Positions 21,150 through 62,160 of a stretch of DNA of 64,000 nucleotides are shown piece after piece. Location of the stretch: the UHGV virus genome UHGV-1383976. One strand, written 5' to 3'. The DNA comes from a virus. The notes beneath the pieces are model-generated. The model made no database searches, was not told the origin of the DNA, and saw only the letters and a list, made by a program, of their open reading frames with translations. How positions within the stretch are numbered: the stretch's first letter is position 1; every line of letters begins with the position of its first letter. A program made the translations under genes and the position numbers.

Positions 21150-21683
21150 ATGAAGGATCTTCTAATGAGCGGGGCTTGTTTTAGCTTTATCGAAAAAGGT
21201 ATTTTTGAAAAACTTGTTTATATACGCCCCAATATCACGCTTGAAGGAGTGCCTGATATTGGCTACCTCAAAGGCGGAATGGACGAAAAGCTTGAATGGA
21301 CTTTAGCTCCATTATGGGATAAGTTCGGTGGCCGCGAAGCTACTCAAAATCTTGTTGCTTCTGGCAAGATTGAGCTTGTAGCCTTACCTTTTATCAAAGG
21401 TCGCAGTTTTGAAAACAGCATTATTTATGTCAGTGAAGGCCAGAACATTACTCGTAAAGTCGCTGGCAATATTATTAGTCGCGCTGGTGAGGGCACTGAA
21501 ATTTGGATAAATGGCGACTATCACAGTCAGACCGATCGCAGAATGTTTGAGGTTGATAATGGTATGCGTGCGATGGAGGAAACCCTGAAAGGCAATGCGC
21601 TCTATGAAACTATTTATCTTCCTATTACAGAGCGTTCTGCTGTAGCTCAACTTGCTGGAATTGTTTGTAACACTGAAAATTGA
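21150..21683 (+). CDS. phoH: PhoH-like ATPase, exon 2
   Basis: IIYVSEGQNIT and IWINGDYHSQTD match PhoH DEAQN / TGDxxQxD motifs. Confidence 0.55.
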   Translation: MKDLLMSGACFSFIEKGIFEKLVYIRPNITLEGVPDIGYLKGGMDEKLEWTLAPLWDKFGGREATQNLVASGKIELVALPFIKGRSFENSIIYVSEGQNITRKVAGNIISRAGEGTEIWINGDYHSQTDRRMFEVDNGMRAMEETLKGNALYETIYLPITERSAVAQLAGIVCNTEN

Positions 21684-32095: not shown

Positions 32096-32142
32096 ATAAA
32101 AATATAAGATAATTGAGATTTTACAAAAGGAGATCAATTCAA

Positions 32143-34182: not shown

Positions 34183-34192
34183 ACAGCACTAA
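33470..34192 (+). CDS. HNH homing endonuclease with NUMOD-like repeats
   Basis: HHILPKCKGGTDDKENL..HF.AH HNH motif; repeated ISEE/EANKG modules. Confidence 0.7.
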   Translation: MEKEMTYKEFIDNILEERGRFSCGEEYHERHHILPKCKGGTDDKENLIDLFAKEHFIAHKLLAEENPEDISLVRAYQCMTIARNPKTARYIASSEEYEEARKMFSEALKELYKDKTKHPSYGKHISEERKQRISEANKGNKYCVGRKVSEETRKKISEANSNPSAETREKMSQSQKKLARWDGAKNPKARKVVRLSDGKVYDCIKYAAEENNIPLSTFKSRLHKGKGDFVYFEDYQNKQH

Positions 34193-39116: not shown

Positions 39117-39143
39117 ATATATAGAAAGTGAGAGAGAAATATG

Positions 39144-39221
39144 GGCCGGATAACTCAGATGGTAGAGAACCAGTGCGGTTAGGCGCTGGAGGAGGCGGTG
39201 GTTCGAATCCACCTCGGCCCA
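39144..39221 (+). tRNA. atypical tRNA-like (7-bp anticodon stem, 6-nt loop GGTTAG)
   Basis: perfect acceptor ggccgga/tcggccc and T-arm ggtgg-ttcgaat-ccacc; non-canonical anticodon arm. Confidence 0.4.
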
Positions 39222-39224
39222 ATT

Positions 39225-40073
39225 AGATATGAAGGCGACATACAGTTATTATAGTCGCCGGACGTACTGCTCCGTCCATTACGAACAGAGCAGCCCCGCA
39301 AAACGAGGGTGAGAGTTGAGTTTGTTGGTTTTACTTGAAACCGCCGTCGGGGTAAGTGGCGTTACATCTTACCAAAAAAATCCGTCTGACTGCAGTAAGG
39401 GCGGTTGGTTTGTAGGTTTGCCAATAGGTATAAGTCTAGATACCAATAAAATACTTACCAAAGAGGAGTAATATGGCTGAAGTCCTCCAGCGTGGTTGAT
39501 ATGTTGAAATGCCTAGGCCACGCACATATGTCAGTTTAGTTTAACGAGGGAAAACAACGCCCGTCAAGGCGTAATTTCGGGTTCGAGTCCCGAAACTGTC
39601 CTTGGTTTGACAGGCCAAGAAATTTGTCAGGTGCGGCCCTTTGTCGCCGGTCGAGACTCCGTCCGGAAATGAGCTACGTCTAAGTAAGAAGCGTGAACTT
39701 AGCGCTGATGTGCGTGATGCATCGGTTGCGTGTCCAAAACACGACAGGTTTGGTTGAGTTTTCTACACAAAATTCAATTGGGTCAGGCCGCCCACAGGAT
39801 GGCCGCGGGTTCCACTCCCCGAACGAAAAACAATCGGGAAATCTCTTGTTTTTCTCAATTTTGTTAGTAGTTAGTCGCATTGATGAAATTGCTTTTTGGA
39901 GTAAAGTTGTGAGTAGCTAAAGAAATGACAATTCTTTTTCTACTCAAAAAGCCAAGTATCCGCCTCTGCTTGGACATCCGCGCGAGGTTGCGTGTTGATG
40001 AAAAGCGTGGAAGGCAGTTATATAATGGGGACTGCCGCATAGTTGGTTTAGGAGAGTTGCCAGCTACGGAAAT
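39225..40073 (+). ncRNA. candidate large structured ncRNA (~850 nt, GC-rich, ORF-free, with tRNA-like modules)
   Basis: no ORFs; embedded T-arm-like cgggttcgagtcccg; same transcription unit as the flanking tRNAs. Confidence 0.45.
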
Positions 40074-51441: not shown

Positions 51442-53460
51442 AAAAAGTATAAAAAGTATAAAAAAGATAGCTTTGTGATTTTTTAGTTTTTTTATATGCT
51501 TACTCAAAGGTGCGGCCGCTGTGTAAGTTGAATTTTCCAAAAATTTGGAATGGGTATAAGTCTAACTTACCGTGATGACCTTGCGCGATGGCAACGCTGC
51601 ACCTGTAAATAAGGCAATTGTGCAAGTCAAGTCAAATGTCAAGTCGCTTGTTTCATTTGACATTTGACTTGACACATTTGACATTTGACTTGACAGTGTT
51701 GTTTGGTTTTGATATTTACCTTACTTACAATCTTACCTACACGTGTGTCTTCACCAATTTTGGTAGGAACGCCGCCCTGTAAGTAAGGTAGGAATTTTGG
51801 GATGTTAGAATTTTCCAGAAATTCGGTAAGTGCGGCGTGTTAGAAAAATTCTAGAAATTTTGGGACGTTGAAATTTTCCAAAAATTTCACCGTTGATGGA
51901 GTAAGAAAAATTGTGAAAAATTTGTGAATTTTTCAATTGGACGAAATTTTTAGGACTGCGAATTTTAGGAGAGTAAGTAAGTCTCCTACACTTTATATTG
52001 TAAGTAAGGCAGATAAGTTAACTTATAAGTAAAATATATAAGTAAGACTTATAAGTAAGACTTATAAGTTAACTGTGTGTTCTACTTATAAGTTAATTGT
52101 ATGTCCTACTTATAAGTTAACTGACAGCCCAACCTATAAGTTAACCTAGCGACAAACGGACCCAAGTCCGCCTCGCGGGAGGGAGTACAAGCTCCACCTA
52201 TAAGTCAACTGAATTCCAAACCGCGCGCCCTACTTATAAGTTAACGGGAGGGCATTGTGTGCGGGAAAGCAACTGAGCCAGCGTGTGTGTGTTGTTGTAC
52301 TGTAGCTCTCAACTGCGTAGCCAACCTATAAGTTAGCGAACACGTAAGCGAACGCCCACTCCACAACGCTTGGAAACCTAATGGTCGAGGCCTTGTGCGG
52401 GGTATGGGGAGGCGTTTTTATGACAAAAAAGGGATGGTAGTGCAAACTTTTATACAAAATCAAGTTTTTGATTTCACTATCCCAACACAATATCTTGTGG
52501 TCGACGGTTAGACGGTCGAACAGTTAGCTAACCTATAAGTAATACTTATAAGTAGGGCCTACTTAACCTTTTCTCCAATTTTTGGGGAAATTTTTTTATG
52601 TCAAATTTTGGAAACAAAATGGCGCGGCACGATTGGTTCATCAAAAATATTCTTGCCAGAAATTACCCGTAATTCCACAATTCAACTTATTAATAGTCTT
52701 GTTCGCGCACGTGTTGCCAAAACTTTTCTAGAGTCCAATCCTTCTCTCAAAAAATTTTTCGTGGCTCAGAACGAATAAAATCAGTCGTGATGGTGCGGCA
52801 ACGTTCCAGATGGGGCTTACAGGCGCGCCTTGGAAAATTTTACCAGCCGTGGTAAATTTTGGGAAATTTGTAAAATTTTGGGAACAGCTGCTAGACTGGC
52901 CGGTCGCCGCGATTCGTATCTCGCGTCATCTTTGTGCGGCCAACTCAATGGTCAGAAAAGTTGCTTTTTTTTACAATGTAGCGTTTTGTGATTTGTCATA
53001 CAATAAAAACAGAAATCGCGTATGGAAAATTTTGGAAGCACCGCACAATTATTTCCAGCTTTTCGTTTTAGCTGTTGGGTATATGAAAAATTTGGCGGCC
53101 TCGGTTTTAGGCGGTCTGGCTTTTCCAGCTTTCTCCAGCTTCTTCCAAATTTCCAAAATTTTCCAGCTTATGGTTCAGCTTTTCCAGCCGCTACAGCTGC
53201 AGCTTTTTCAGCTTTTTGACGTCGGCCCTTACGTATCGCCACAGGTGCGGCCACACAAGTAGGTATGGCCTCGCCACGGGATTACGCGCGATTGGTAAAT
53301 TCTGTAAGAAATGGTAAAATTTGGAAGCCGTGGTACTTATTGGATGAATTGTCAAATTCTGGACGAATTGTCAAATTCTGGTAAAAGAATTACCAAATTT
53401 TGGTAAAAAGAATTGTCAAATTCTGGTAAAACTTGAAAATAAAAATTTAGACTACGTTAG
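51442..53460. repeat. 2-kb repeat-rich noncoding region (multiple repeat families)
   Basis: large palindrome GTCAAGTCAAATGTCAAGTC...GACTTGACATTTGAC (51628–51700); TTTTCCAAAAATTT family; ~12× (C)CTATAAGTTAAC (51995–52560); TTTTCCAGC tandem (53090–53225); 3× GAATTGTCAAATTCTGG (53320–53425). Confidence 0.7.
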
Positions 53461-53466
53461 TCTAAA
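53446..53466 (-). promoter_or_regulatory. palindrome TTTAGACTAcgTAGTCTAAA (copy 1)
   Basis: 20-copy inverted-repeat family. Confidence 0.6.
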
Positions 53467-53502
53467 ACAAAAAAACAAAAGGAAGATTTTTCAATCTCCC
53501 TT

Positions 53503-53694
53503 TCATTTCTCATATCTTTCATAACCTATAACTTGAATTTCTTCATCTTCACCATTCACGCGTTTTATATAATAAATATTATTTTCATATTTTACAAGCA
53601 TAATTCTTACATAATCAGCATCTTCGGCGCAAGTTGAAAAAAGTCTTTCATCTTTTATAATTTCACCGTATCTAATAATTTCGTGTGAATCCAT
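53503..53694 (-). CDS. small early protein
   Basis: RBS aaaaggaga; own promoter and terminator. Confidence 0.45.
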   Translation of the reverse strand: MDSHEIIRYGEIIKDERLFSTCAEDADYVRIMLVKYENNIYYIKRVNGEDEEIQVIGYERYEK

Positions 53695-53714
53695 TTTTAA
53701 ATTCTCCTTTTCAT

Positions 53715-53781
53715 TTAGTAATTGTATTATACACCAAAATTCTAAAATGTCAAGCATTATTTTAGACTAACATAGTCTAAA
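53715..53781 (-). promoter_or_regulatory. palindrome (53761–53781) + TTGACA-N-TATAAT promoter
   Basis: minus strand: palindrome, ~20 nt, TTGACA, 16–17 nt, TATAAT, RBS, ATG. Confidence 0.6.
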
Positions 53782-53801
53782 AACAAAAAAAGGAAGATTT
53801 T

Positions 53802-54161
53802 TCAATCTTCCTCGCTCTCGTCTTTCTTCTTTGCTTCACGCTCGGCGGCTTTCGCTTCACGGCGTGCCTTATCGCGTGCTATCTTCTTCTCTTTCTCCGC
53901 GGCTTTCGCGGCGGCCTTCTCCGTCTTTTCAGCAAGTTTGAGCGCGTAGCCCTCGCGCCGTGCGTAGCAGTCGTCTCCATCCTCATCCTTCGGAATTTTT
54001 ATGACTACCTGCACACAACCTTCTTCCCCATCATCGGCAACGACAGGGAAACTAAATACACTTGCCCCTTCAAGTCCTACATCTTCGCCCATTTTCTGCG
54101 CATAGCTCATAAAAAATTCTACAAACTTCGCACGAAGAACATTAGCATTTTTAACAGTCAT
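53802..54161 (-). CDS. early protein, family A copy 1 (acidic; KIPKDEDGDDCY)
   Basis: paralog of 55717..56058. Confidence 0.5.
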   Translation of the reverse strand: MTVKNANVLRAKFVEFFMSYAQKMGEDVGLEGASVFSFPVVADDGEEGCVQVVIKIPKDEDGDDCYARREGYALKLAEKTEKAAAKAAEKEKKIARDKARREAKAAEREAKKKDESEED

Positions 54162-54204
54162 TTTCAAATTCTCCTTTTCTTATTTTGTGAGTAAAGTATA
54201 TCAC

Positions 54205-54270
54205 CATTTTCTATAAAAGTCAATAGTTATTTTTTCAATAATGCCGCGCGATTAGACTACCGTAGTCTAA
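54205..54270 (-). promoter_or_regulatory. palindrome (54252–54270) + TTGACT-17-TATACT promoter
   Basis: as above. Confidence 0.6.
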
Positions 54271-54287
54271 CTTTTATAAAGCAGGAA

Positions 54288-54533
54288 TTACTCCTGCTCA
54301 GTCATTTCATCCTCGGCAGTATCTTCTCTCCAATAAGAGCATTCCCCATCGAATTCGGCTTCTTCAAGGATATAAACCAAACCATCTCTTGCTTCTCGAA
54401 AATCCTTTTCCCATTTGCCATCTTCCTGACTGTATGCATACAGATTATCAAGAATCTTTGCGGCGTGCTTCAAGGCTTCTTCTTCTTCCGAACTAAGAAC
54501 ATACTTCTTTGAAATGCAAGTGCGAACTATCAT
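54288..54533 (-). CDS. early protein, family B copy 1
   Basis: paralog of 56190..56420 (LDNLY...G.WE.DF.EA.D). Confidence 0.5.
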   Translation of the reverse strand: MIVRTCISKKYVLSSEEEEALKHAAKILDNLYAYSQEDGKWEKDFREARDGLVYILEEAEFDGECSYWREDTAEDEMTEQE

Positions 54534-54574
54534 TTTTAAAATCTCCTTTTCATAATTTCTGAATAAATTATAAC

Positions 54575-54632
54575 ACAAATTTTTTGAAAAGTCAAGTTTT
54601 ATTTCTTTTGATTTTAGACTAAGTTAGTCTAA
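54575..54632 (-). promoter_or_regulatory. palindrome (54613–54632) + promoter
   Basis: as above. Confidence 0.55.
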
Positions 54633-54674
54633 TTATGGGATTTTGTGAAAAATTTCACAAGTTGAGTCAAAAAA

Positions 54675-54696
54675 GGAAACGTTTTACAACGTTTCC
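54675..54696 (-). terminator. rho-independent terminator
   Basis: ggaaacgtt/aacgtttcc hairpin. Confidence 0.5.
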
Positions 54697-55556
54697 ATTT
54701 TATTCAAGAAGGCTTCAACTGTTCCAAGTTCGCGGAAGGGAAAATATATAATTCCTATTTCATATTTGCCTTTTGTCCGTTTGTGAATTTCCGCGAAAAT
54801 TTTGCTTTCAATTTCTGCGTCAGAAAGTGCGGTATGCTCTTCATCAAAATCAAAATTATTTTCCAAAAAGCGAAAAGATGTTTCTGCACTTGTCTTGAAA
54901 TATTTCCCGCTTGCCGTTATCCAATCATTATTGACACAAGCCTGCTTGTATTCATCATTATTGAGTAAGTGCCGCGCCGACAAGCCCCACAAATCAAACA
55001 AAGGATAGGCAACGCCATGAAAACGGAAAACTTCGCTTTCAAATTCTTTGCGGCTTTCGTATCTTCTGCCATTTGCGATATACTCACAAGTGCGCTCTTG
55101 CAGGGCAAGCCAAGAATGAAACTGCGCGGAATAAAGATTATTTATGTAAAGCTCTGTAAATGGAATTGCTTTCTTGAAGTCAAACATTGAATTATACGCG
55201 CCTACGGCGGAAACTTCGGACAAATCGCGCTCAAGAACTGATACCGCGCGCTTCCAGTCGGTTAGCTCAATTTCGTCGCGCTCCAGCCGTTCAAGATAAA
55301 TCGGGCGTTTGCTTGCATAGTATGCGGTATCAAAAACGGCAGGAACGCTGAAAATCTCACTTATCAGAAAACTGCGGCGGCGATATACATTTCCTTTTGC
55401 GTCAATTATCTGCCATCCTAAATCATAAATAAGCGGCTTCGCAATAGCAACTTTCTGCTTCGCGTCGGCGGGCAGGTCTGCGGCGCATGGTAGTGTAGCA
55501 GTTTCACAGTCAAGAATCATGTAGTATTTGCGGCGGCGGTCGAGTCTCTTTTCCAT
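54684..55556 (-). CDS. DEDDh 3'-5' exonuclease (DnaQ-like)
   Basis: Exo I LDCETATL, Exo II YNSMFDF, Exo III HTALSDAE. Confidence 0.65.
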   Translation of the reverse strand: MEKRLDRRRKYYMILDCETATLPCAADLPADAKQKVAIAKPLIYDLGWQIIDAKGNVYRRRSFLISEIFSVPAVFDTAYYASKRPIYLERLERDEIELTDWKRAVSVLERDLSEVSAVGAYNSMFDFKKAIPFTELYINNLYSAQFHSWLALQERTCEYIANGRRYESRKEFESEVFRFHGVAYPLFDLWGLSARHLLNNDEYKQACVNNDWITASGKYFKTSAETSFRFLENNFDFDEEHTALSDAEIESKIFAEIHKRTKGKYEIGIIYFPFRELGTVEAFLNKMETL

Positions 55557-55599
55557 TTTTTTCAATTCCTTTTCATATGTTGTCAAGGGTTCGTCTTCG

Positions 55600-55693
55600 C
55601 TCCCTTGCAAGTATTATTATAGCACCACCGCGCAAGAAAGTCAATCGTTAGTTTTTTCACAAGCCCCAATTTTTAGACTAACTTAGTCTAAAA
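55600..55693 (-). promoter_or_regulatory. palindrome (55672–55693) + promoter
   Basis: as above. Confidence 0.55.
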
Positions 55694-55716
55694 AATCCAT
55701 AAAAAAGGGAACTTTT

Positions 55717-56058
55717 TCAAGTCCCCTTTTCGGCCTTTTCGGCCTTCTTCGCTTCGCGGCGCGCTTCATCCTTGGCAATTTTCTTCGCCTTTTCGGCGGC
55801 CTTCTCTTTGGCCTTCTGTGCTTTCTTCTCCTGATTCATGGCGTACTCTTTACGGCGGCTGTAGCAGTCGTCTCCATCCTCATCCTTCGGAATTTTTATG
55901 ACTACCTGCACGCTTCCTTCCTCTCCGTCATCAGCGACAACGGGGAAGCTGAAAATATTTGTGGCTTCAAGGCCAACATCTTCACCGCTTTCCTGTGCAT
56001 ACTCCATAAAAAACTTTATAAACTTTGCCCGCATTGCATTAGCATTTTTTACAGTCAT
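55717..56058 (-). CDS. early protein, family A copy 2
   Basis: paralog of 53802..54161. Confidence 0.5.
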   Translation of the reverse strand: MTVKNANAMRAKFIKFFMEYAQESGEDVGLEATNIFSFPVVADDGEEGSVQVVIKIPKDEDGDDCYSRRKEYAMNQEKKAQKAKEKAAEKAKKIAKDEARREAKKAEKAEKGT

Positions 56059-56094
56059 TTTTCAAGTCTCCTTTTCATTTAGTAATTGTATTAT

Positions 56095-56156
56095 ATCAAA
56101 AGCCGCGCTAATTGTCAATAGTTTTTTTCTGTAAATTTAGACTAAGTTAGTCTAAA
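56095..56156 (-). promoter_or_regulatory. palindrome (56136–56156) + TTGACAAT promoter
   Basis: as above. Confidence 0.6.
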
Positions 56157-56166
56157 AAATATAAAA

Positions 56167-56181
56167 GCGGGATTCTCCCGC
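56167..56181 (-). terminator. rho-independent terminator
   Basis: gcggga ttc tcccgc with a T-run on the minus strand. Confidence 0.55.
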
Positions 56182-56189
56182 ACTTAGGG

Positions 56190-56420
56190 CTAGTTAATTG
56201 AAGTATAATTTTCTTCCCAGAAAGTTCCCATATCATTCTGCTTTAACTCGTTTATAAGATAGTGGATACTATCGTTCGCTTCCTGAAAGTCGCCTTCATA
56301 CTCTCCATGTTCTTCACTCTTATTATAAAGATTGTCAAGAAGCTCTGCGGCCTTGTGGAGTGTGTTTATATCTTCATCTGAAAGAAAATAGCGTTTAGTA
56401 GAGTAAGTCTTGATAATCAT
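56190..56420 (-). CDS. early protein, family B copy 2
   Basis: paralog of 54288..54533. Confidence 0.5.
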   Translation of the reverse strand: MIIKTYSTKRYFLSDEDINTLHKAAELLDNLYNKSEEHGEYEGDFQEANDSIHYLINELKQNDMGTFWEENYTSIN

Positions 56421-56459
56421 TTTCAAAATCCTCTTTTCTTATTTTGTAAGTAAAGTATA

Positions 56460-56521
56460 GCACAATTTTTTTAAAAAGTCAAGTTTCTTTTGCTTGTGGA
56501 TTTAGACTAACTTAGTCTAAA
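56460..56521 (-). promoter_or_regulatory. palindrome (56501–56521) + TTGACT-17-TATACT promoter
   Basis: as above. Confidence 0.6.
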
Positions 56522-56548
56522 CGCATATAAAAAGACTGACGTTTTCTG

Positions 56549-56776
56549 TCAGTCAATTTCAAATACTCCGTCAATGGGAATTACTTCATGAAGTTCATTG
56601 AATGTTGTAATATCTCCATCACAAAGGCGAACTGCGTTCCATTCATTATAGTCGCTATCTTCAATAGAACTTATTTTCATATAGATACTATCTATTTCAT
56701 CAGAAAGAGCGAAGCAATCTCCGCGATTAATCATTCTATATTCTACGGACTTATTGAACTTTCTACGAATTTCCAT
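56549..56776 (-). CDS. small early protein
   Basis: RBS aaagggga. Confidence 0.45.
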   Translation of the reverse strand: MEIRRKFNKSVEYRMINRGDCFALSDEIDSIYMKISSIEDSDYNEWNAVRLCDGDITTFNELHEVIPIDGVFEID

Positions 56777-56814
56777 TTTTATTTCCCCTTTCGTTTTGTA
56801 AATATATAATACCA

Positions 56815-56871
56815 TATGCCGCACGATTTGTCAACAAGTAATTCAATCTGTTTTAGACTACAGTAGTCTAA
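56815..56871 (-). promoter_or_regulatory. palindrome (56852–56871) + promoter
   Basis: as above. Confidence 0.55.
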
Positions 56872-56880
56872 CATTAAAAA

Positions 56881-56896
56881 GACGCCTTATGGCGTC
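56881..56896 (-). terminator. terminator hairpin gacgccttatggcgtc
   Basis: GC hairpin flanked by A/T. Confidence 0.5.
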
Positions 56897-57209
56897 ATCG
56901 CATTATTTGTTCAAAAGATTCAGTATGCCCACATTCATTACAAGTGTAATAATATGTTGTACTCATTGCTGACTTTGCCGCGGCTGTAAATTCATAAGTG
57001 CCGCCACATTCACAAATCCCTTCGTTCCATCGTTCTGCTTGTCCCTCGTTTTGATGACAAAGTGCAAGAGAGATTCCAAGAGCAAGCGCAAGAGCAAGAA
57101 TTATACTAAGAATTTTCCCTATAATAGTATTACAATTTAAAACCATAATTGGGGCAATACAAATAAAGAGAAGCCCCCAAAGAATATAAAAGTAGATACT
57201 TTGAAACAT
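56895..57209 (-). CDS. membrane protein with C-terminal zinc ribbon
   Basis: 2 TM + CECGG...CNECGH. Confidence 0.45.
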   Translation of the reverse strand: MFQSIYFYILWGLLFICIAPIMVLNCNTIIGKILSIILALALALGISLALCHQNEGQAERWNEGICECGGTYEFTAAAKSAMSTTYYYTCNECGHTESFEQIMR

Positions 57210-57244
57210 TGAATCAATTCCTTTCTTAATTTTGTAATTGGATT

Positions 57245-57299
57245 ATAACATAAAATTGCGCGCTTGTCAATCCCCCCCTTTAGACTACATTAGTCTAAA
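57245..57299 (-). promoter_or_regulatory. palindrome (57279–57299) + promoter
   Basis: as above. Confidence 0.55.
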
Positions 57300-57316
57300 A
57301 AGAAAAAGAGGAAGTT

Positions 57317-57520
57317 TTATTCTTCCTCGTCAAAAATACATTCAGCAATAATTTGATGGTAATACCTCATTTTGGATTGCCAAGTGAAATATAAATCACT
57401 AATGCGTTGAAGCTCTTTACTATCTTCTTCATCTAAAATATTTTTTCGTGCGCGGTGTAAATCAGCCGAAAGAGAAAGCAAATCATCTGCAATTTTTTCT
57501 ATGCGTTCAGAATATTTCAT
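57317..57520 (-). CDS. small early protein
   Basis: RBS aaaaggaag. Confidence 0.45.
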   Translation of the reverse strand: MKYSERIEKIADDLLSLSADLHRARKNILDEEDSKELQRISDLYFTWQSKMRYYHQIIAECIFDEEE

Positions 57521-57554
57521 TATTTTAATACTTCCTTTTCTTATTGTGCCTAAA

Positions 57555-57610
57555 GTATATCATAAATCAAAAAAAATGTCAAGTCTTATTTTAGACTAAC
57601 TTAGTCTAAA
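57555..57610 (-). promoter_or_regulatory. palindrome (57588–57610) + promoter
   Basis: as above. Confidence 0.55.
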
Positions 57611-57619
57611 ACCCGAAAC

Positions 57620-57641
57620 GGAAAAGTCAATTTGACTTTCC
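57620..57641 (-). terminator. terminator hairpin ggaaaagtcaa/ttgactttcc
   Basis: hairpin + T-run. Confidence 0.5.
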
Positions 57642-58094
57642 CAAAATTTTCAGAATTTCTAACATTTCCTTTTCACTGAATGAATTTTCTCCCCATTCTT
57701 CACGATTGCGCGCTTCATCATCGAAAAGAATTGCATTTTCGTCATAGAATGAACATACAGTTGACTTCGGTGTTCCATAAGGAACAACACAAATTTCATC
57801 AAAGTGAACACTTTTCAAATGGACAGAAAGCCATTTCTTTTTTGCCGTCTCAATTTCTGCAAGGTATGCCGCGCTTGCTGTCTTGCTTCCCCAAGAAACA
57901 ATACAAAGTTTATATCCCATCTTCTTCAATTTGTTCAACTGTCGCGCGAGTATGCGCATATTGCCGAGTGGGTCTGCGTGCAGATAAGGGCCGACTAATT
58001 TCATTTGCAAATTGTCAAGCCAATTAGGGAACGAATAAAAATCAACTATTGTACCATCCATATCGAAATAAAGTGCAGGCTTGCGATTATACAT
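57627..58094 (-). CDS. HAD-family 5'(3')-deoxyribonucleotidase (NT5C / T5 Dmp-like)
   Basis: N-terminal FDMDGTIVDF HAD motif I. Confidence 0.65.
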   Translation of the reverse strand: MYNRKPALYFDMDGTIVDFYSFPNWLDNLQMKLVGPYLHADPLGNMRILARQLNKLKKMGYKLCIVSWGSKTASAAYLAEIETAKKKWLSVHLKSVHFDEICVVPYGTPKSTVCSFYDENAILFDDEARNREEWGENSFSEKEMLEILKILGKSN

Positions 58095-58129
58095 AAAACA
58101 TAATTTCCTTTCTTATTTTGTAAAATAAG

Positions 58130-58195
58130 TATAACATAATTATGCGGTTTTGTCAAGTTGCTTTTGCTTGTGATTTTAGACTATCTTAGTCTAAA
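58130..58195 (-). promoter_or_regulatory. palindrome (58175–58195) + promoter
   Basis: as above. Confidence 0.55.
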
Positions 58196-58211
58196 TTTAT
58201 TCAAAAAAAAT

Positions 58212-58228
58212 GGGCGGATTCCCCGCCC
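58212..58228 (-). terminator. terminator gggcgg attcc ccgccc + T8
   Basis: hairpin + T-run on the minus strand. Confidence 0.6.
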
Positions 58229-58253
58229 GATTTTCATTTTTATTTTTCCTTTC

Positions 58254-58526
58254 TTAAATTTCTACAGAAACTTTTTCATATCCATCGGCGTCGAAATCAT
58301 CCCATGCGACGTCTTCCATTTCTTTCATAAAGTCAGCGCGAACGCCTTTCTTTTCGTCTTCACTCATGTAAAACAAGCAAAGATGAGAATAATTTTCAAA
58401 AAGCCAATCGCTAAAATTATCGTCGCTTACCGTGTTAGGGTAGTATTCATTTTCTATGGTTTCTTGCGCTTGCTTTTCATTGAGAATTATACCTTTCTCC
58501 CAATTCACATAAAGATTAGCTAACAT
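58254..58526 (-). CDS. small acidic early protein
   Basis: RBS + ATG. Confidence 0.45.
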   Translation of the reverse strand: MLANLYVNWEKGIILNEKQAQETIENEYYPNTVSDDNFSDWLFENYSHLCLFYMSEDEKKGVRADFMKEMEDVAWDDFDADGYEKVSVEI

Positions 58527-58564
58527 TTTATCAATTCCTTTCTTGTTTTCTGTGTCTATTATAC

Positions 58565-58623
58565 TATATGATTTTTAGTTTGTCAATAAGTTTTTCTTTC
58601 TGTTTTAGACTAAAGTAGTCTAA
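58565..58623 (-). promoter_or_regulatory. palindrome (58604–58623) + promoter
   Basis: as above. Confidence 0.55.
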
Positions 58624-58683
58624 TTTTATAAAAAATCTAAAAGGCGGGAGTCCGTCCTTTAGTTTTAAGTTTATTAAAATTTC

Positions 58684-58830
58684 TTAAATTCTTTTTAGCA
58701 AATGCCAAGAACCAATACGGAAAACTACGCGATAAATGCGGCGTCCAATGCGAACCCATTCGTTTCTTCGGAATTTATTGTTTAATGCTCCACCGAAATC
58801 CCAACCGCAGTAACCGAAAATTTCATTCAT
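58684..58830 (-). CDS. small basic early protein (48 aa; not in ORF track)
   Basis: hand-translated MNEIFGYCGWDFGG...; own promoter TTGACA-17-TATAAT + RBS aaaggaag. Confidence 0.35.
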   Translation of the reverse strand: MNEIFGYCGWDFGGALNNKFRRNEWVRIGRRIYRVVFRIGSWHLLKRI

Positions 58831-58864
58831 TGCGTTCACTTCCTTTTCTTGATTACATTATATC

Positions 58865-58920
58865 ACATTTTTAGAGAATGTCAATAATTATTTTTTGATA
58901 TATTAGACTAACTTAGTCTA
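58865..58920 (-). promoter_or_regulatory. palindrome (58902–58920) + promoter
   Basis: as above. Confidence 0.55.
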
Positions 58921-58944
58921 AATTTTTAAAAAAGGGAAGATTTT

Positions 58945-59250
58945 TTAATCTCCCCTTTTATCATAACGGAGCACAAGTTCAAAATCATCATAACTGTCTA
59001 TATAGTGTGCAGTTTGTGGTTCAATTCCAAAGTCCTCGCATACATCCACGGCGGGGGTATCTTCAAAATAATAACAGGTGTCGTGGAAGCTGCTAGTTAT
59101 ATCAATAACAGGAAGTTTATTATTCTCGCCAACTTGACTACCAACAATAAGAAATTTCGGCTCACCTGTTTCATTGCTTCCATGAATTGCATAAAGATTT
59201 TTTATTCCAGTCCGTCCATTTATTACTTTATTAACTTCAAATCTAACCAT
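58945..59250 (-). CDS. small early protein
   Basis: RBS aaaaggaga. Confidence 0.45.
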   Translation of the reverse strand: MVRFEVNKVINGRTGIKNLYAIHGSNETGEPKFLIVGSQVGENNKLPVIDITSSFHDTCYYFEDTPAVDVCEDFGIEPQTAHYIDSYDDFELVLRYDKRGD

Positions 59251-59284
59251 TTTCAAATCTCCTTTTCGTTTTGTGAGTATATAA

Positions 59285-59346
59285 TATCATATATTGTATA
59301 GTTTGTCAATAGAATTTTCAGAAATTTTTAGACTAACTTAGTCTAA
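59285..59346 (-). promoter_or_regulatory. palindrome (59327–59346) + promoter
   Basis: as above. Confidence 0.55.
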
Positions 59347-59364
59347 CTTTCCCCCTAAAAAAAG

Positions 59365-59385
59365 AAATGGGATTATCTCCCATTT
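59365..59385 (-). terminator. terminator aaatggga ttatc tcccattt
   Basis: 8-bp stem + T-run. Confidence 0.55.
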
Positions 59386-59394
59386 CTCTTCGGT

Positions 59395-59766
59395 TTACTT
59401 CTCAACGAAATAAACCTTGCGCTTGCCCACCTTCGGGAACTTGCGCTCTTCCACGCTGATAAGGCCGTCCTTCACAAGTCCACGCGCAATCGCGCCCGCC
59501 TTGTTGTGCGTGACTTCAAGAGCTTCGCCGAGTTCGGTTTCCGTCAGACCGTCACAGCCATCAGCCGACAGTGCTTCGATAATGCCCGCGCGGATAGGCG
59601 CGTTCTCAGTTGCGGACTTCTCGGCGGCCTTGCTCTTGCGCGTATCGTTCCGGCGGTCGAGACTTGCGAGAGCTTCCACGCAATATGCGTTCAGCTCGTC
59701 AGTCAGGTCGTACTTCTCCATCATGGTGGTGTAGAATTCGCGTGCAGTCATCTTCTTGTCGTTCAT
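59395..59766 (-). CDS. GC-rich winged-helix-like protein (paralog of 49386..49760)
   Basis: marked GC excess vs neighbours; aligns with 49386 protein. Confidence 0.5.
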   Translation of the reverse strand: MNDKKMTAREFYTTMMEKYDLTDELNAYCVEALASLDRRNDTRKSKAAEKSATENAPIRAGIIEALSADGCDGLTETELGEALEVTHNKAGAIARGLVKDGLISVEERKFPKVGKRKVYFVEK

Positions 59767-59839
59767 GGTATTTCCTTTCTTAATGGCGCTAAGGTCGCCG
59801 CCCTTATTAGTGAGGGACTTTATCTCCCCTTCACGATTA

Positions 59840-59907
59840 TTATTATATCACAATATCGCGGAAAGTCAACAATTATTTTTCTGGGATTTAGACTAACTTA
59901 GTCTAAA
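59840..59907 (-). promoter_or_regulatory. palindrome (59887–59907) + promoter
   Basis: as above. Confidence 0.55.
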
Positions 59908-59922
59908 TTTTATACAAAAAAG

Positions 59923-59938
59923 AGCGGGTTCCCCGCTC
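59923..59938 (-). terminator. terminator gagcggg ttcc ccgctc
   Basis: hairpin + T-run. Confidence 0.55.
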
Positions 59939-60158
59939 ATTCTTCGATTATAAGTTTATGTTTTACTTCGCAACATATTTCATTGTTATCGACAAAAAAC
60001 AGTTCTCCATTGTCAAGATACATAGCATTGCCTTCATCTGTTGTATCAGTTTTTATGAAAAATTCATTAGGATCGATTTTCTTTACAAGAACAGTCCCGC
60101 GCGGAAAGTAGTCAAATGTTTTATTCTTCTTTTCATTGCGCAAATCTTCAATTATCAT
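59937..60158 (-). CDS. small early protein
   Basis: RBS gaaggaga. Confidence 0.45.
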   Translation of the reverse strand: MIIEDLRNEKKNKTFDYFPRGTVLVKKIDPNEFFIKTDTTDEGNAMYLDNGELFFVDNNEICCEVKHKLIIEE

Positions 60159-60199
60159 TTTTTTATTCTCCTTCAAAAATTTATTTATTTTTTACTGTG

Positions 60200-60271
60200 C
60201 TTATATAATATCATATATAATGTAATTTGTCAATAAAATTTTCAGAAATTTTTAGACTAACTTAGTCTAAA
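60200..60271 (-). promoter_or_regulatory. palindrome (60251–60271) + promoter
   Basis: as above. Confidence 0.55.
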
Positions 60272-60297
60272 ATTCCAGAAAAACCAAAAGGTGGAAA

Positions 60298-60687
60298 TTA
60301 CTTTCCACCAATTGGGCACACGGTTAAGCCGTGTTCTTTAAGGTATTGAATTGCTTTTTCTCCGTCATGGTATTCAAGAATTTGTTGAATTGATGGATGT
60401 GCTTCATCATATTCATTAACTACTACAATATCAATTTCGGGATTTTTCTTTTCTGTTGCAATAGGAAGAAGGCTATCATAATAGCCAAAACGTCGAAGAC
60501 CTTTTCTATTAGTTTCTACCGCAACATCGTTTGTCAAACAGTTATGATGTGCCCATTCGAGCAAATCCCAACTACCGTATTTTATAGATTCTTCTGGAAT
60601 TTCATCGGCAAGTTGGAAATTCGTGCGGCGATTGCACAAAATTTCTTTATTGTAAAAGATAGTTATAAACCGGTAGAACGCTTTCAT
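60298..60687 (-). CDS. hypothetical early protein
   Basis: RBS ggaaaggaag; second gene of a two-gene unit. Confidence 0.45.
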   Translation of the reverse strand: MKAFYRFITIFYNKEILCNRRTNFQLADEIPEESIKYGSWDLLEWAHHNCLTNDVAVETNRKGLRRFGYYDSLLPIATEKKNPEIDIVVVNEYDEAHPSIQQILEYHDGEKAIQYLKEHGLTVCPIGGK

Positions 60688-60905
60688 TTCGTTGCTTCCT
60701 TTCCAATGCCAAATATAAGCTTTACAAGCCACAAAACAAGCCACATCAAAAATGCGGTTTTGGCGCTGAAGGCGAACGCGATAACGCCCAGCTTAGTGAG
60801 CGCCCACCACAGCACCCAAATAAGCCCCAAGGTGATACCTGCGCTAATTGCAGACAAAAGCGTAACAATGAGAATTCCAAGAATTACAGCAATCGTTTTA
60901 TTCAT
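60684..60905 (-). CDS. small membrane protein (2–3 TM)
   Basis: hydrophobic; RBS ggaaaggaa. Confidence 0.4.
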   Translation of the reverse strand: MNKTIAVILGILIVTLLSAISAGITLGLIWVLWWALTKLGVIAFAFSAKTAFLMWLVLWLVKLIFGIGKEATK

Positions 60906-60939
60906 TTTATTAATTCCTTTCCGGTTTTGTGAGTCAAGT

Positions 60940-61002
60940 ATAACACATAAATTTTGGTTTGTCAATAGATTTTGGAAGAAAGGTTAGACTAAGGTAGTCT
61001 AA
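60940..61002 (-). promoter_or_regulatory. palindrome (60984–61002) + promoter
   Basis: as above. Confidence 0.55.
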
Positions 61003-61020
61003 ATTTTGAGCGGGAACTTT

Positions 61021-61332
61021 TCAGTTCCCTTTGTTCCAATCTTCAGAAATGCGATCAAAGACTTCTTCAGACGTAAGCCAACCCTCAACAGAATCGCCAT
61101 TGCGAGTCAGGCCCATTATTTCGAGAAGCCCTTCTTCATGCCCATAACTGCCGCTATGGCAAACTGCGTCACAAATCAATTCATCTCCGTGGCCGTAATA
61201 CCGCACAGAGGGCATCCCCCAAATATATTCTATTCGATAGGGAATTTTTGCCTCTTGCAGAAACCACTCAAGCTTGCCCATTTCAATATATTCTATTTCA
61301 ATTCCATACGAGTCCTTCTTTATTAATTCCAT
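61021..61332 (-). CDS. small early protein (Cys/His-rich)
   Basis: RBS aaaaggaga. Confidence 0.45.
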   Translation of the reverse strand: MELIKKDSYGIEIEYIEMGKLEWFLQEAKIPYRIEYIWGMPSVRYYGHGDELICDAVCHSGSYGHEEGLLEIMGLTRNGDSVEGWLTSEEVFDRISEDWNKGN

Positions 61333-61374
61333 TTTTGAAAATCTCCTTTTCTTATTGTATTTATATAATATCAC

Positions 61375-61431
61375 AAAATTTTTCGTAAATCAACCCACAA
61401 AAATTTCCAATTTAGACTAAGATAGTCTAAA
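61375..61431 (-). promoter_or_regulatory. palindrome (61411–61431) + promoter
   Basis: as above. Confidence 0.55.
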
Positions 61432-61460
61432 AACTCTGAAAAAGTTTGAGCTTCATCGGC

Positions 61461-61640
61461 TCAAACAAATTCTGCAAAAGAGCGTTCCACAGCTCCTGCA
61501 TCTTCACGGCAGCACTCAATCCTTATCAGGTTATCGCCTAGGTGCTCTACAAAGCAGGGGATGTTAGCTTCCAGCAGATTCATTGCTCGAATAAATTCGG
61601 GCGCGTTCGCATCTTCAACATAAATTTCCTTTATATACAT
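61461..61640 (-). CDS. small early protein (59 aa; not in ORF track)
   Basis: hand-translated MYIKEIYVEDANAPEF...; RBS agaaaggaa; terminator gtttgagc/gctcaaac. Confidence 0.35.
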   Translation of the reverse strand: MYIKEIYVEDANAPEFIRAMNLLEANIPCFVEHLGDNLIRIECCREDAGAVERSFAEFV

Positions 61641-61679
61641 TTGGTAATCAATTCCTTTCTCTCAATTTCTGTATTCATT

Positions 61680-61744
61680 ATATCACAAATTTTCTATAAT
61701 GTCAAATCCATTTTCTTTCCAATTTAGACTATGATAGTCTAAAA
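61680..61744 (-). promoter_or_regulatory. palindrome (61723–61744) + promoter
   Basis: as above. Confidence 0.55.
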
Positions 61745-61783
61745 CAAAATTTTTGTAAAAAAATGAGCGGGAGTCAATCCCGC

Positions 61784-62065
61784 TCAATTCCAGCCGCGCA
61801 TTTTCCAGCACAGAGCATTGCCCGGCTGCCCGTAGCAGATGTTCGGATGCAGGATAACCTCGCCTTCGAGGATTCCGAGCTTTTCGTAGAATTCCTCAAT
61901 CAGCACATCGGTAGCCTCAATGCGCGCCTGCTCCAGCGTGTCGGCTGATGGAGCTTCCAGCTCTCCCCAGCTAATAAGGATACTATTCACAATCGGCGGC
62001 AGGCGGTGAGCGTTCGCGGCAACGTAGGCGCAGAGTTCGTTGTAGTTTATGGCGGTAGTAGTCAT
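61784..62065 (-). CDS. hypothetical protein (GC-rich)
   Basis: ORF; RBS. Confidence 0.45.
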   Translation of the reverse strand: MTTTAINYNELCAYVAANAHRLPPIVNSILISWGELEAPSADTLEQARIEATDVLIEEFYEKLGILEGEVILHPNICYGQPGNALCWKMRGWN

Positions 62066-62099
62066 TGGAAAATCCCCTTTTCAAGTATGCCTAATTCTA

Positions 62100-62160
62100 C
62101 CACACATTTGCGGAAAGGTCAATGGCAGAAAATTTCCAATTTAGACTATCATAGTCTAAA
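62100..62160 (-). promoter_or_regulatory. palindrome (62140–62160) + promoter (last copy)
   Basis: as above. Confidence 0.55.

Follow-up and report, generated by a model that had tools for sequence, protein, structure and literature searches.

The window, a 64-kb stretch of DNA (64,000 nucleotides) from an uncultured human-gut phage, contains a gene-free span of 2,061 bp at positions 51442-53502, as delimited by the ORF lists. The sequence-only reading had described this locus as cis-acting noncoding DNA with a high density of iterons and palindromes. That description was upheld, and the five repeat families it had named were recovered at, or within a few bases of, the positions it gave them. 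As functions it had offered, with no preference among them, a replication origin, a pac/cos site, an injection-stop signal, or a partition site; indirect support was obtained for two of the four, the origin and the injection-stop signal. At least six repeat families were found in all, and these were almost restricted to 51442-53502. The features of the locus are as follows.

51442-53502, no strand: whole gene-free region; the last + strand gene stops at 51441 and the last early - strand gene stops at 53503
51626-51694, no strand: compound palindrome of GTCAAGTCAAATGTCAA, one forward and two reversed copies; several TTGACA hexamers, no -10 partner
51713-51795, no strand: long-range inverted repeat TACCTTACTTACA / TGTAAGTAAGGTA, enclosing a conserved interior of ~50 nt with the palindrome ACCAATTTTGGT
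51786-51975, + strand: about three tandem units of 62-63 bp, each with AATTTTGGGA and TTTTCCARAAATT (YCCARAAWTT family)
51906-51935: invariant block AAAAATTGTGAAAAATTTGTGAATTTTTCA, inside the 62-63-bp tandem units
52010-52145, + strand: main iteron array, seven sites with the core A(C/T)TTATAAGT; start-to-start distances of 26, 13, 24, 24, and 24 bp
52146-52340, + strand: GC-rich (~50%) segment with three more iterons in the same orientation (52196, 52232, and 52324); spacers variable, with indels
52340-52419, + strand: conserved GC-rich block ending in GGCGTTTTT; terminator-like on the + strand
52528-52553, no strand: two adjacent iterons, ACCTATAAGTAATACTTATAAGT; flanks resemble the main array in the opposite orientation
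52570-52597, + strand: small hairpin, CTCCAA/TTGGGG, followed by seven T; terminator-like and kept in relatives
52675-52781, no strand: two adjoining conserved blocks; no significant fold
52946-53051, no strand: most conserved block, with 102 of 106 columns invariant in three sequences
53050-53217, + strand: pyrimidine-rich run of ~7-8 (T)TTCCAGCTT / CAGCTTTT units; the other strand is GGA-rich
53293-53431, - strand: TGGTAAAATTTGGAAG units and then four CCAGAATTTGACAATTC units; a TTGACA hexamer in each, no usable -10
53447-53465, no strand: 20th and last early-unit palindrome, TTAGACTA-N3-TAGTCTAA, at the right edge of the region
53470-53511, - strand: intrinsic terminator of the last early gene (53503-53757)

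Coding capacity and genomic setting

Several results indicated that the region does not encode protein. In the near-identical ENA contig k119_164321, the gene caller placed no genes in the equivalent 2.06 kb, and no conserved ORF was found in 51442-53502 under any genetic code. Alternative codes were tried because one distant relative recodes TAG; recoding of TAG, TGA, or TAA opened no long or conserved frame in the region. A 150-aa ORF called at 52810-53262, which had been suspected to be a repeat artefact, was rejected as a gene, since it was broken by frameshifts and by two to seven in-frame stops in five of five relatives. A decayed pseudogene was also considered and discarded: tblastx comparisons with distant relatives and with the rest of the window returned no matches. 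Searches of the deposited-phage nucleotide collection, in distant and near modes, gave no match to the sequence.

The region is the point at which at least 19 early transcription units converge with a block of genes on the opposite strand. These early units, whose array covers ~53.5-63 kb, have consensus sigma-70-type promoters directed toward the region, and their palindrome occurs in 20 exact copies in the window (0.39 expected). Early-array products include a HAD-type phosphatase labelled 5'-3' deoxyribonucleotidase and a nuclease-like protein that is called an "exodeoxyribonuclease" in the annotation of Enterococcus phage H1. A flanking 253-aa protein is variable and is missing from one close relative. 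Cumulative GC skew reaches its maximum, not its minimum, in the region. The genome has the look of a virulent phage: its host-takeover array is large, and neither an integrase nor a repressor was seen. The host is, by inference, a Gram-positive gut bacterium.

Conservation and the repeat families

The region was kept in five close relatives from human-gut metagenomes, and its architecture was kept across the wider family; it is therefore neither absent nor unconserved in relatives, the outcome that the sequence-only reading had named as contrary to its proposal. Conservation among relatives starts at ~51520 and continues rightwards. Mean identity over the region (80-81%) equaled the neutral identity at 4-fold sites of the flanking genes (75-81%), yet invariant blocks of 40-106 nt occur within it. 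Invariant blocks against a neutral-level mean indicate discrete constrained elements, and the order of the elements was better preserved than some of the flanking genes. In more distant family members, lineage-specific short repeats were clustered at the same place, as is expected if the sites coevolve with a specific binding protein. When the region was compared with 45 related loci by nhmmer, matches were obtained in the two closest relatives only, which limited the power of covariation analysis to six genomes. Two invariant blocks used as exact patterns against IMG/VR retrieved the same two relatives and no others, and one metagenome scan added four. The relatives' assemblies were collapsed and circularly permuted.

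The compound palindrome was confirmed, with GTCAAGTCAAATGTCAA copies at 51626-51642 (forward) and at 51657-51673 and 51678-51694 (reversed), all arms being 100% complementary. This unit was absent from the rest of the window; in relatives, the outer copies were kept and the middle copy was replaced in two (L089 and L046). The TTTTCCA(A/G)AAATT and AATTTTGGGA units, also reported earlier, proved to be a single motif in opposite orientations (YCCARAAWTT / AAWTTYTGGR). Eleven of its 14 window copies were located in the region (5.3 per kb, versus 0.05 per kb elsewhere), where the sites are distributed across the entire 2 kb. The TTTTCCAGC / CAGCTT units at 53050-53217 are real, but they had been described as tandem and are instead interspersed every 10-30 nt. 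Within them, 53135-53189 was invariant in three sequences, and equivalent AAGCTGGAA repeats were present in four distant relatives (L066, L068, L078, and L079). The units at 53293-53431 differed in copy number between relatives; here the three predicted copies of GAATTGTCAAATTCTGG were found at 53346, 53365, and 53410, with one variant at 53387.

Outside the repeats, strict conservation was concentrated in a few blocks. Residues 52378-52419 were invariant in all relatives possessing the GC-rich block, and TTTTTCGTGGCTCAGAA(C/T)GAATAAA, within 52675-52781, was invariant even in the most divergent relative. A 75-nt core of the most conserved block (52950-53025) was invariant in six sequences. 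The same block contains a conserved TGGTCA-17 nt-TACAAT (52949-52977) and a second TACAAT, which may represent a weak promoter or overlapping binding sites. The repeats did not form a CRISPR-like array, being 10-17 nt long (at least 24 nt is required) with irregular spacers of 3-200 nt, and helically phased A-tract curvature in the region was not above the genome background.

A reading in which the product is one or more noncoding RNAs (primer, sponge, or regulatory) and the repeats are RNA motifs is very improbable. The promoter-like sequence at 52949-52977 and the conserved terminator-like ends at 52419 and 52597 would suit such a transcript, as would the strand asymmetry of 53050-53217 (pyrimidine-rich on one strand, GGA-rich on the other) and the large ROOL RNA in the same genome. 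However, Rfam gave no matches in the region at gathering or permissive thresholds (E up to 5), and RNAalifold sliding windows on both strands of six genomes revealed no covariation. The conserved blocks and the GC-rich core folded no better than shuffles, with single-sequence z values near or above zero: no significant fold and no covariation were found at 52340-52419, no fold beyond shuffles was found at 52146-52340, and 52946-53051 was less stable than shuffles on either strand (z +1.0 and +2.2). The exception was 51713-51795 (65 of 73 columns invariant in three sequences), the only block more stable than shuffles; it was so on both strands (z -2.4 and -2.8), as a DNA palindrome predicts. 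Compensatory pairs hinted at by three sequences were not upheld. The occurrence of palindromic sites in both orientations points to recognition of double-stranded DNA.

The region is noncoding and without RNA structure, and its repeats are real, region specific, and under purifying selection. The best reading is that of a DNA-level control region for nucleoprotein assembly, neither gene nor structured RNA, to which proteins would bind.

One form of such control is a transcription boundary or regulator-binding zone, in which phage regulators bound to the arrays would turn off or keep apart the two converging transcription programs. The sites would serve as roadblocks, as a repressor sink, or as weak regulated promoters, and replication and DNA entry would not be directly involved. 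The converging units meet exactly at the region, whose right side comprises the early terminator, a palindrome of the early type, and TTGACA repeats in degenerate form. Consistent with this role are the terminator-like + strand elements (52391-52419 and 52570-52597), the promoter-like TGGTCA-17 nt-TACAAT, and the operator-like position of an iteron trio at the ligase gene (see below). Cultured relatives encode their own sigma factor, suggesting that temporal transcription control is elaborate in the family. Nevertheless, we consider a pure transcription boundary unlikely. Neither termination nor insulation needs anything like 13 operators plus five further site families spread over 2 kb, and a 0.6-kb convergent spacer suffices in cultured relatives. 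The motifs are also missing upstream of other window genes, indicating that their binders are not general transcription factors.

The iteron array and a candidate replication origin

The iteron is a dyad-symmetric site, ACYTATAAGT, often extended to ...TTAAC; the site spans ~16 bp (xxAC-YTATAAGT-TAAC), and 11-13 copies are present in the region. With at most one mismatch, ACTTATAAGT occurred 11 times in the region and three times at 5481-5531, out of 19 occurrences in the window (3.0 expected), and the strict form CYTATAAGT gave 26 strand-matches in the window (1.2 expected). The earlier count of ~12 direct copies of a 12-mer thus stood for the core and failed for the longer unit, as the full TATAAGTTA(A/G)C tail was found on only six copies. 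Across six genomes, 72% of the columns in iteron cores were invariant, versus 44% in spacers (Fisher p=6e-6). The number of iterons was held at 10-12 among relatives, while one 13-bp unit was gained or lost in the main array; a steady site number with a variable unit matches typical iteron-array evolution. The two iterons at 52528-52553 pair as an inverted repeat with 52047-52085 and were invariant in six sequences. By lineage, the iteron types were ACTTATAAGT-TAAC, -ATAC, GCTTGTAAA, GTTATATAA, and AAAATAGTT. Inspection by hand rejected the iteron as a sigma-70-type promoter, the TTAACT-TATAAG spacing being wrong on both strands.

The only repeats common to the region and the rest of the window were the early palindromes and an iteron trio at 5.5 kb.

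4294-5403, - strand: ATP-dependent DNA ligase gene
5481-5531, no strand: second small iteron cluster, three copies of ACTTATAAGT, in the AT-rich spacer just upstream of the ligase gene

This trio, which occurs once only in 64 kb outside the region, lies in a very AT-rich spacer within a replication module (dNMP kinase, RNase H, ligase, and UvrD-type helicase), with an AT-rich promoter-like stretch on one side and the ribosome-binding site on the other. It was conserved in three close relatives; the ligase locus is common only to close relatives.

On the basis of these sites, an origin of the iteron type or a locus controlling replication is the likeliest function of the region, a reading that we advance tentatively, and 52010-52555 looks like the origin-like core. 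Lambda-type origins consist of a few dyad-symmetric iterons ~24 bp apart adjoining an AT-rich stretch, and RK2-type oriV combines iterons with AT-rich and GC-rich segments. The geometry of the array appears to fit an origin: several direct copies stand in a regular register (24, 24, and 24 bp, plus 13 and 26 bp), and their cores are under selection. The left half of the main array is AT-rich (26% GC over 51900-52099), although comparable AT-rich spacers are common in the genome and no 13-mer-type element was identified there, and it adjoins a segment of 50% GC (52100-52400).

A working model of the origin can be proposed from this arrangement. A phage-encoded dimeric DNA-binding protein would coat the array and build a higher-order complex, which would open the adjacent AT-rich DNA or otherwise license replication. 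By also binding the three identical sites before the ligase gene, this protein would couple expression of the replication module to occupancy of the origin. The AAWTTYTGGR sites, CAGCTT units, TTGACA-bearing units, and compound palindrome would play an auxiliary part, binding other proteins of the phage or the host, and these repeat families may include a weak conserved promoter at 52949-52977. The entire region would shield the origin against transcription converging on it from both sides. We infer, from how the sites are arranged, that proteins bind here, that the locus functions as an origin, and that it is linked to the ligase gene.

Comparison with known iteron origins and control loci (lambda ori, plasmid and P1 oriR/incA, and P4 ori/crr) showed both likenesses and differences. 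Those loci likewise have tandem 16-19-bp dyad sites at a spacing of ~2 turns beside an AT-rich neighbor, a second and smaller cluster of the same site near replication genes, and sites that are lineage specific. In contrast, the region is four to ten times longer, carries at least five extra repeat families, and sits at a transcriptional convergence, with no initiator gene containing or adjoining the array. No initiator, Rep, DnaA-like, or other recognizable DNA-binding gene was found next to the region or among the 73 window proteins. DnaA boxes, for which the sequence-only reading had suggested a search, were not enriched: TTWTNCACA matched once in the region and six times in the window (8.8 expected). 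Phage and plasmid origins are usually 0.2-0.5 kb long with one to three repeat families, compared to 2 kb and six or more here. Convergence and the GC-skew maximum are on the terminus-like side, although the skew in this genome just tracks the direction of the genes. A better origin candidate may lie in the half of the genome outside the 64-kb window.

An array of 10-13 short sites with a second small promoter cluster also resembles the parC, tubC, and omega-heptad centromeres. By this analogy, the region would be the centromere-like site at which a plasmid-like carrier state is partitioned, and an adaptor of the ParR, TubR, or omega type would bind the array. The window proteins included no ParA, ParM, TubZ, or ParB-type partition gene, and together with the virulent appearance of the genome this makes a centromere highly improbable.

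Comparison with T5 and with related phages

Among cultured relatives in the same phage family, a likeness was found in Enterococcus phage H1 (OP534061), which has repeat-rich noncoding islands at ~90.5-91.6, 99.7-100.6, and 102.7-103.3 kb. These islands share the neighborhood of the region (an early small-gene array ending in a nuclease-like gene) and contain several families of short palindromes and direct repeats, e.g., AAATAACACYTGTTATTT, TGTGAAATATTTCACA, and AAATTTTCTGAAAAT-type sites. They differ in being shorter, split over three places, and without sequence similarity to the window; they are likewise without annotated function.

Outside the family, one of the closest parallels was the T5 injection-stop locus (iss), or untranslated repeat region 3 (AY587007, 9194-10856). 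This is 1.66 kb of untranslated DNA that follows + strand pre-early genes ending in terminators and precedes a gene on the opposite strand; it contains 9 copies of a 15-bp direct repeat, 4 copies of a repeat of ~25-31 bp, inverted repeats, and about eight palindromes. In T5 as here, a gene-free 1.7-2 kb with many direct-repeat families, inverted repeats, and palindromes separates the early or pre-early array from an oppositely oriented gene, and the early segment encodes a HAD-type nucleotidase-like enzyme. These parallels raise the main alternative to the origin, possible though doubtful, in which the region bounds an early segment that, as in T5, is transferred first or is terminally repeated. 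Its repeats and palindromes would then be cis-acting and would mark the point, on the inner side of the host-takeover genes, at which DNA entry pauses or a long terminal repeat ends.

The region is placed like the T5 locus: it lies at the far end of the early genes, where these converge with the block that follows. The HAD-type deoxyribonucleotidase and nuclease-like protein of the early array echo T5 dmp and A1, and the order of elements outlasts some flanking genes, as reported for T5 relatives. Both phages are large and tRNA-rich, and the wider family here is siphovirus-like (PMC10607447). Several observations weigh against a T5-like boundary. The region has no sequence similarity to any deposited phage, T5 included, and no protein homology to T5 Dmp or A1 was found beyond a DxDGT phosphatase motif. 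The paired DnaA boxes (TTWTNCACA) of the T5 region are absent here, and the ~130-bp inverted-repeat partner a few kilobases away (T5 IRC-spacer-IRD) was not found within the window. Sequence turnover within the family is much faster than in T5, the host is Gram-positive by inference, and a T5-like model leaves the iteron trio near the ligase gene unaccounted for. To our knowledge, two-step injection is confined to T5-like phages of Gram-negative hosts.

A more specific version of the T5 analogy is unlikely but can be stated. Throughout a family of large siphoviruses of gut Firmicutes, related to phAss-1 and the Enterococcus phages EF1, H1, and VRE9, the fast-evolving, lineage-specific repeat block at the end of the host-takeover array would be a T5-style DNA-entry checkpoint or long-terminal-repeat boundary that arose independently and uses binders other than DnaA, from phage or host, possibly CodY-like nutrient sensors.

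Cis-acting sites such as origins and DNA-entry checkpoints are essentially unmapped in large uncultured human-gut phages. The region is the most prominent noncoding feature of this phage family, and cultured Enterococcus relatives exist in which predictions can be tested. A true origin would open the way to replication studies and to origin-based interference, the blocking of phage growth by cloned origins, while a true T5-like checkpoint would mean that two-step DNA delivery is not peculiar to one genus of Gram-negative phages. Either way, lineage-specific sites predict a coevolving DNA-binding protein that should be findable by comparative genomics.

The ends of related contigs bear on another reading, in which the locus would be a genome terminus or a site recognized for packaging, whether pac, cos, or a concatemer junction that includes terminal repeats. 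Of the 28 related contigs exceeding 80 kb, nine terminate in the 7 kb downstream of the nuclease-like gene, mostly inside the noncoding region (~1-2 expected at random), and T7 has arrays of short repeats beside its terminal repeats. However, the contig ends that were inspected fall in tandem repeats or low-complexity AT-rich DNA, which by themselves break short-read assemblies, and the region is mid-contig in the closest relatives and in the ENA contig. No terminase gene was found among the 73 window proteins. The distant relative phAss-1, opened according to PhageTerm, was cut ~8 kb from the nuclease-like gene, on its other side, although this opening is too distant and too ambiguous to transfer. 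A terminus is thus quite improbable at this locus; the tandem repeats explain the frequent assembly breaks here in these phages. A 98-nt overlap between L034 and the end of L064 was dismissed as an assembly-graph artefact, as the left flank was unrelated.

A further comparison was made with the CodY box, the site of a host global regulator. The 15-bp consensus AATTTTCWGAAAATT had five matches in the region, each with 2-3 mismatches, and 26 in the window (11.7 expected). The best matches (1 mismatch) were located at two early promoters, and the central CCA/CCG consistently deviates from CWG. Candidate CodY-type sites have the form TTTTCCRAAAATT.

Repeat content and conservation of the gene-free region

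The window derives from a large uncultured phage, and none of the 50,697 deposited phages gave a nucleotide match to it. A near-identical contig was found in ENA (ERZ27261302 k119_164321, 129,281 bp), on which the gene caller placed no gene in the equivalent 2,061 bp. The 290-aa nuclease-like early protein led to only five named relatives, Enterococcus phages EF1, EF5, H1, and VRE9 (28% identity) and phAss-1 (26%), a group of large siphovirus-like gut phages (PMC10607447). Gene orientation in the window is − up to ~7.1 kb, then + as far as 51441, and returns to − at 53503; the region (51442-53502) therefore lies at a convergence of transcription units.

All of the repeat families that the sequence-only reading had described in the region were found, some in modified form. 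The compound palindrome consists of the 17-nt unit GTCAAGTCAAATGTCAA, once forward and twice reversed (51626-51694). TTTTCCARAAATT and AATTTTGGGA represent a single motif read in opposite directions, with 11 of its 14 window copies inside the region. The claimed ~12 direct copies correspond to 11 occurrences of the ACTTATAAGT core at ≤1 mismatch (3 expected in the whole window), but only six carry the full TTA(A/G)C tail. CAGCTT/TTTTCCAGC units are present at 53050-53217, interspersed rather than strictly tandem, and GAATTGTCAAATTCTGG occurs three times, as described, plus one variant. Three families extend that list:

51713-51795, long inverted repeat on TGTAAGTAAGG
51786-51975, about three tandem 63-bp units
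53447-53465, right-edge palindrome TTAGACTA-N3-TAGTCTAA

Pattern scans and one metagenome scan yielded five distinct close relatives of the region (IMG/VR 3300045988_159271 and 3300045988_158127, human-gut contig ORTG01000372, OIZL01001615, and OQVT01012613). Comparison with relatives had been proposed as a check, and the region was present in all five and alignable end to end. Its mean identity was 80 to 81%, compared with 75 to 81% at 4-fold-degenerate sites of the flanking genes; thus, most of the region drifts at the neutral rate. The iteron cores and the following blocks were invariant:

52946-53051, 102 of 106 columns in three sequences; a 75-nt core does not vary among the six genomes
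53135-53189, 55 of 55 columns
52378-52419, 42 of 42 columns
52675-52781, 51906-51935, and 51984-52010, further invariant blocks

The sequence-only reading had dismissed a 150-aa ORF as an artefact, and this was borne out: frameshifts and two to seven stops interrupt it in five of five relatives. Recoding any single stop codon gave no conserved frame in the region, and tblastx revealed no decayed coding homology. The region had no Rfam match at E values up to 5, its conserved blocks and GC-rich core folded no better than dinucleotide shuffles (the sole exception, palindromic segment 51713-51795, scored on both strands), and RNAalifold across six genomes gave no covariation support. Because of these results, and because the repeat sites are found in either orientation, many of them with dyad symmetry, we conclude that the functional units, as read from sequence, would be double-stranded DNA sites for proteins. 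A noncoding RNA is very unlikely. The region may give rise to a short unstructured transcript; it has a conserved promoter-like TGGTCA-17 nt-TACAAT (52949-52977) and terminator-like ends (52419 and 52597).

Among 44 more distant family members, recovered via the nuclease-like protein, none had nucleotide homology to the region. These loci carry a large gene-free stretch in the equivalent position, with lineage-specific short repeats (e.g., ACTTATAAGTATAC, GCTTGTAAA, GTTATATAA, AAAATAGTT, and AAGCTGGAA), and in a composite of two of them (L064 and L034) the order of element types is as in the window. Cultured Enterococcus phage H1 has islands similar in style but shorter. The region is real, beyond chance, and is a conserved, family-wide, cis-acting feature at the DNA level.

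The equivalent region in relatives tolerates insertions and rearrangements. Locus L043 has an insertion (12650-13240) with a small gene that looks ribbon-helix-helix-like by eye from its translation and a disrupted ORF that we read as a candidate GIY-YIG-type homing endonuclease; L064 has an inverted early-gene paralogue (13963-14330), and the left junction of L090 (1-42) is unrelated. In the distant relative phAss-1 (OQ749652), a 1.4-kb gene-free gap (11137-12514) lies ~2 kb beyond the nuclease-like gene. It includes a GC-rich segment as well as eight A-tracts that are phased at 10 to 11 bp upstream of a consensus promoter.

Iterons and a possible replication origin

The iteron (core ACYTATAAGT) is an imperfect 16- to 18-bp palindrome centered on TTAT-ATAA (xxAC-YTATAAGT-TAAC), the perfect form of which would be GTTAACTTATAAGTTAAC. 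Iterons of the region are arranged as follows:

52010-52145, seven iterons in AT-rich DNA, start-to-start spacings of 26, 13, 24, 24, and 24 bp
within the 50%-GC segment, three further iterons in the orientation of the array, with variable spacers
52528-52553, two iterons with flanks that read like the array above in inverted orientation

Within 52016-52345, 72% of iteron-core columns were invariant versus 44% of spacer columns (p = 6e-6). All six genomes have 10 to 12 sites, and one 13-bp unit has been gained or lost. The only other iteron cluster in the 64 kb is a trio of perfect ACTTATAAGT palindromes (5481-5531), which three close relatives retain. It occupies a very AT-rich spacer upstream of the ATP-dependent DNA ligase gene, with a dNMP-kinase-like gene on the other side.

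Lambda-type and plasmid origins serve as analogues for the iteron array. On the basis of this analogy, the array geometry, the selection pattern, and the link to a replication module, an iteron-type replication origin or replication-control locus is the best-supported specific reading of the region, although we hold it tentatively, at less than even probability. A phage protein, acting as a dimer, would cover the array, build a higher-order complex on it, and open adjacent AT-rich DNA. The trio at the ligase gene, via the iteron-binding protein, would couple replication-gene expression to origin occupancy, and the remaining repeat families would be auxiliary sites. Several observations count against an origin. 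No initiator gene was found near the region, and DnaA boxes, a suggested check, were not enriched in it. To our knowledge, its size (2 kb) and at least six repeat families exceed anything in known origins. The region also sits where transcription units converge and where cumulative GC skew peaks, although GC skew in the window tracks gene orientation.

A transcription boundary or regulator sink at this convergence is improbable. Similarity to the CodY box (low-GC Gram-positive bacteria) was noted for the TTTTCCRAAAATT units, with five matches in the region (2 to 3 mismatches) and 26 in the window versus 11.7 expected; the best are at two early promoters, and relatives have similar sites. The motif center deviates consistently from the CodY consensus, so the CodY link is a speculative lead. 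A partition site, also suggested earlier, is extremely unlikely.

Early array, T5 comparison, and contig ends

To the right of the region, the − strand carries an array of early units, at least 19 in number and near-identical. A unit comprises a hairpin terminator, the 19-bp palindrome TTAGACTA-N3-TAGTCTAA, a consensus promoter (TTGACA-17 nt-TATAAT), and a small gene with a strong ribosome-binding site; the palindrome lies between terminator and promoter. Exact palindrome copies number 20 (0.39 expected) and span 53447-62159; the twentieth (53447-53465) forms the edge of the noncoding region and is followed by four CCAGAATTTGACAATTC units on the − strand that keep the −35 hexamer without a −10. 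In relatives, this slot is filled by other palindromes (TGGGACGT-N-ACGTCCCA, TTAGATGTA, and others). The palindrome probably serves to shut off early genes, as an operator or a processing site. Left of the region, a 253-aa protein is variable and is absent from one close relative. Two members of the early array are relevant here:

54684-55556, − strand, 290-aa nuclease-like protein, annotated "exodeoxyribonuclease" in Enterococcus phage H1
57627-58094, − strand, HAD-type phosphatase, PHROG label 5'-3' deoxyribonucleotidase

In T5, terminators close the + strand pre-early genes, and 1.66 kb without genes separates these from the next gene, which has the opposite orientation; this stretch holds nine copies of a 15-bp direct repeat, along with further direct and inverted repeats and some eight palindromes (Davison, bioRxiv 10.1101/866236). 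This untranslated stretch of repeats, at the inner end of the first-step-transfer DNA, is the closest architectural match in the literature. The window resembles T5 in layout around the region and in having a nucleotidase-like enzyme in the early array, and its phosphatase and nuclease-like protein recall the T5 pre-early dmp and A1 pairing; neither showed homology to dmp or A1 beyond a DxDGT motif. Membership of the region in the class of the T5 injection stop signal (iss) is not supported, since all tested defining features except position fail: no homology to T5 was found, paired DnaA boxes are absent from the region, and a distant inverted-repeat partner was not found within the window. 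The region may still work like iss, though with low probability.

Of 28 related contigs of >80 kb, nine have an end ≤7 kb downstream of the nuclease-like gene, in most cases within the noncoding stretch, far more often than expected by chance. The ends examined fall in repeats that are tandem or of low complexity, and such repeats break short-read assemblies. The ENA contig and the complete-length contigs of the closest relatives, which are permuted differently, cross the region without a break. For the phage family, the region is an assembly break-point; a physical terminus is not shown by contig ends. Related metagenomic contigs ending inside the equivalent region, often in tandem repeats, were L044, L048, L049, L051, L056, L061, L064, L069 (22-nt units), L075, L077, and L079 to L082 (AT-rich units in L080 to L082).

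Other genes of the window

The window has 15 tRNA genes, one ROOL RNA, and two group I introns and encodes an RtcB ligase, an ATP-dependent DNA ligase, RNase H, a UvrD-type helicase, and tail fiber genes. The ROOL RNA is full length (17153-17800; 272 bits, E = 4e-61) and lies inside the tRNA gene cluster. One intron appears to split a PhoH-like gene and the other an endolysin, with the GH25 domain upstream and peptidoglycan-binding and SH3 domains downstream:

19902-21683, group I intron with a LAGLIDADG homing-endonuclease ORF (20261-21100)
32113-35265, group I intron with a NUMOD3 homing-endonuclease ORF (33470-34192)

ARAGORN reported two tRNA-like genes (39142-39222 and 39530-39601) whose anticodon loops are abnormal (four bases, "gtta", in one and two bases, "tc", in the other); their Rfam tRNA scores are weak, and they may be pseudo-tRNAs or unusual decoders. 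Two of 73 window ORFs scanned matched the EcoRI-type adenine methyltransferase family (best E = 2e-70) and may be one split gene; GAATTC was not enriched in the noncoding region. The divergent junction at 7080-7230 is the minimum of cumulative GC skew. A + strand holin-like gene with an apparent start at 7231 conflicts with a mechanical − strand ORF (7138-7548), and the spacer at 7080-7230 contains an iteron-like GTAAGTCTTATAAATTTAC.
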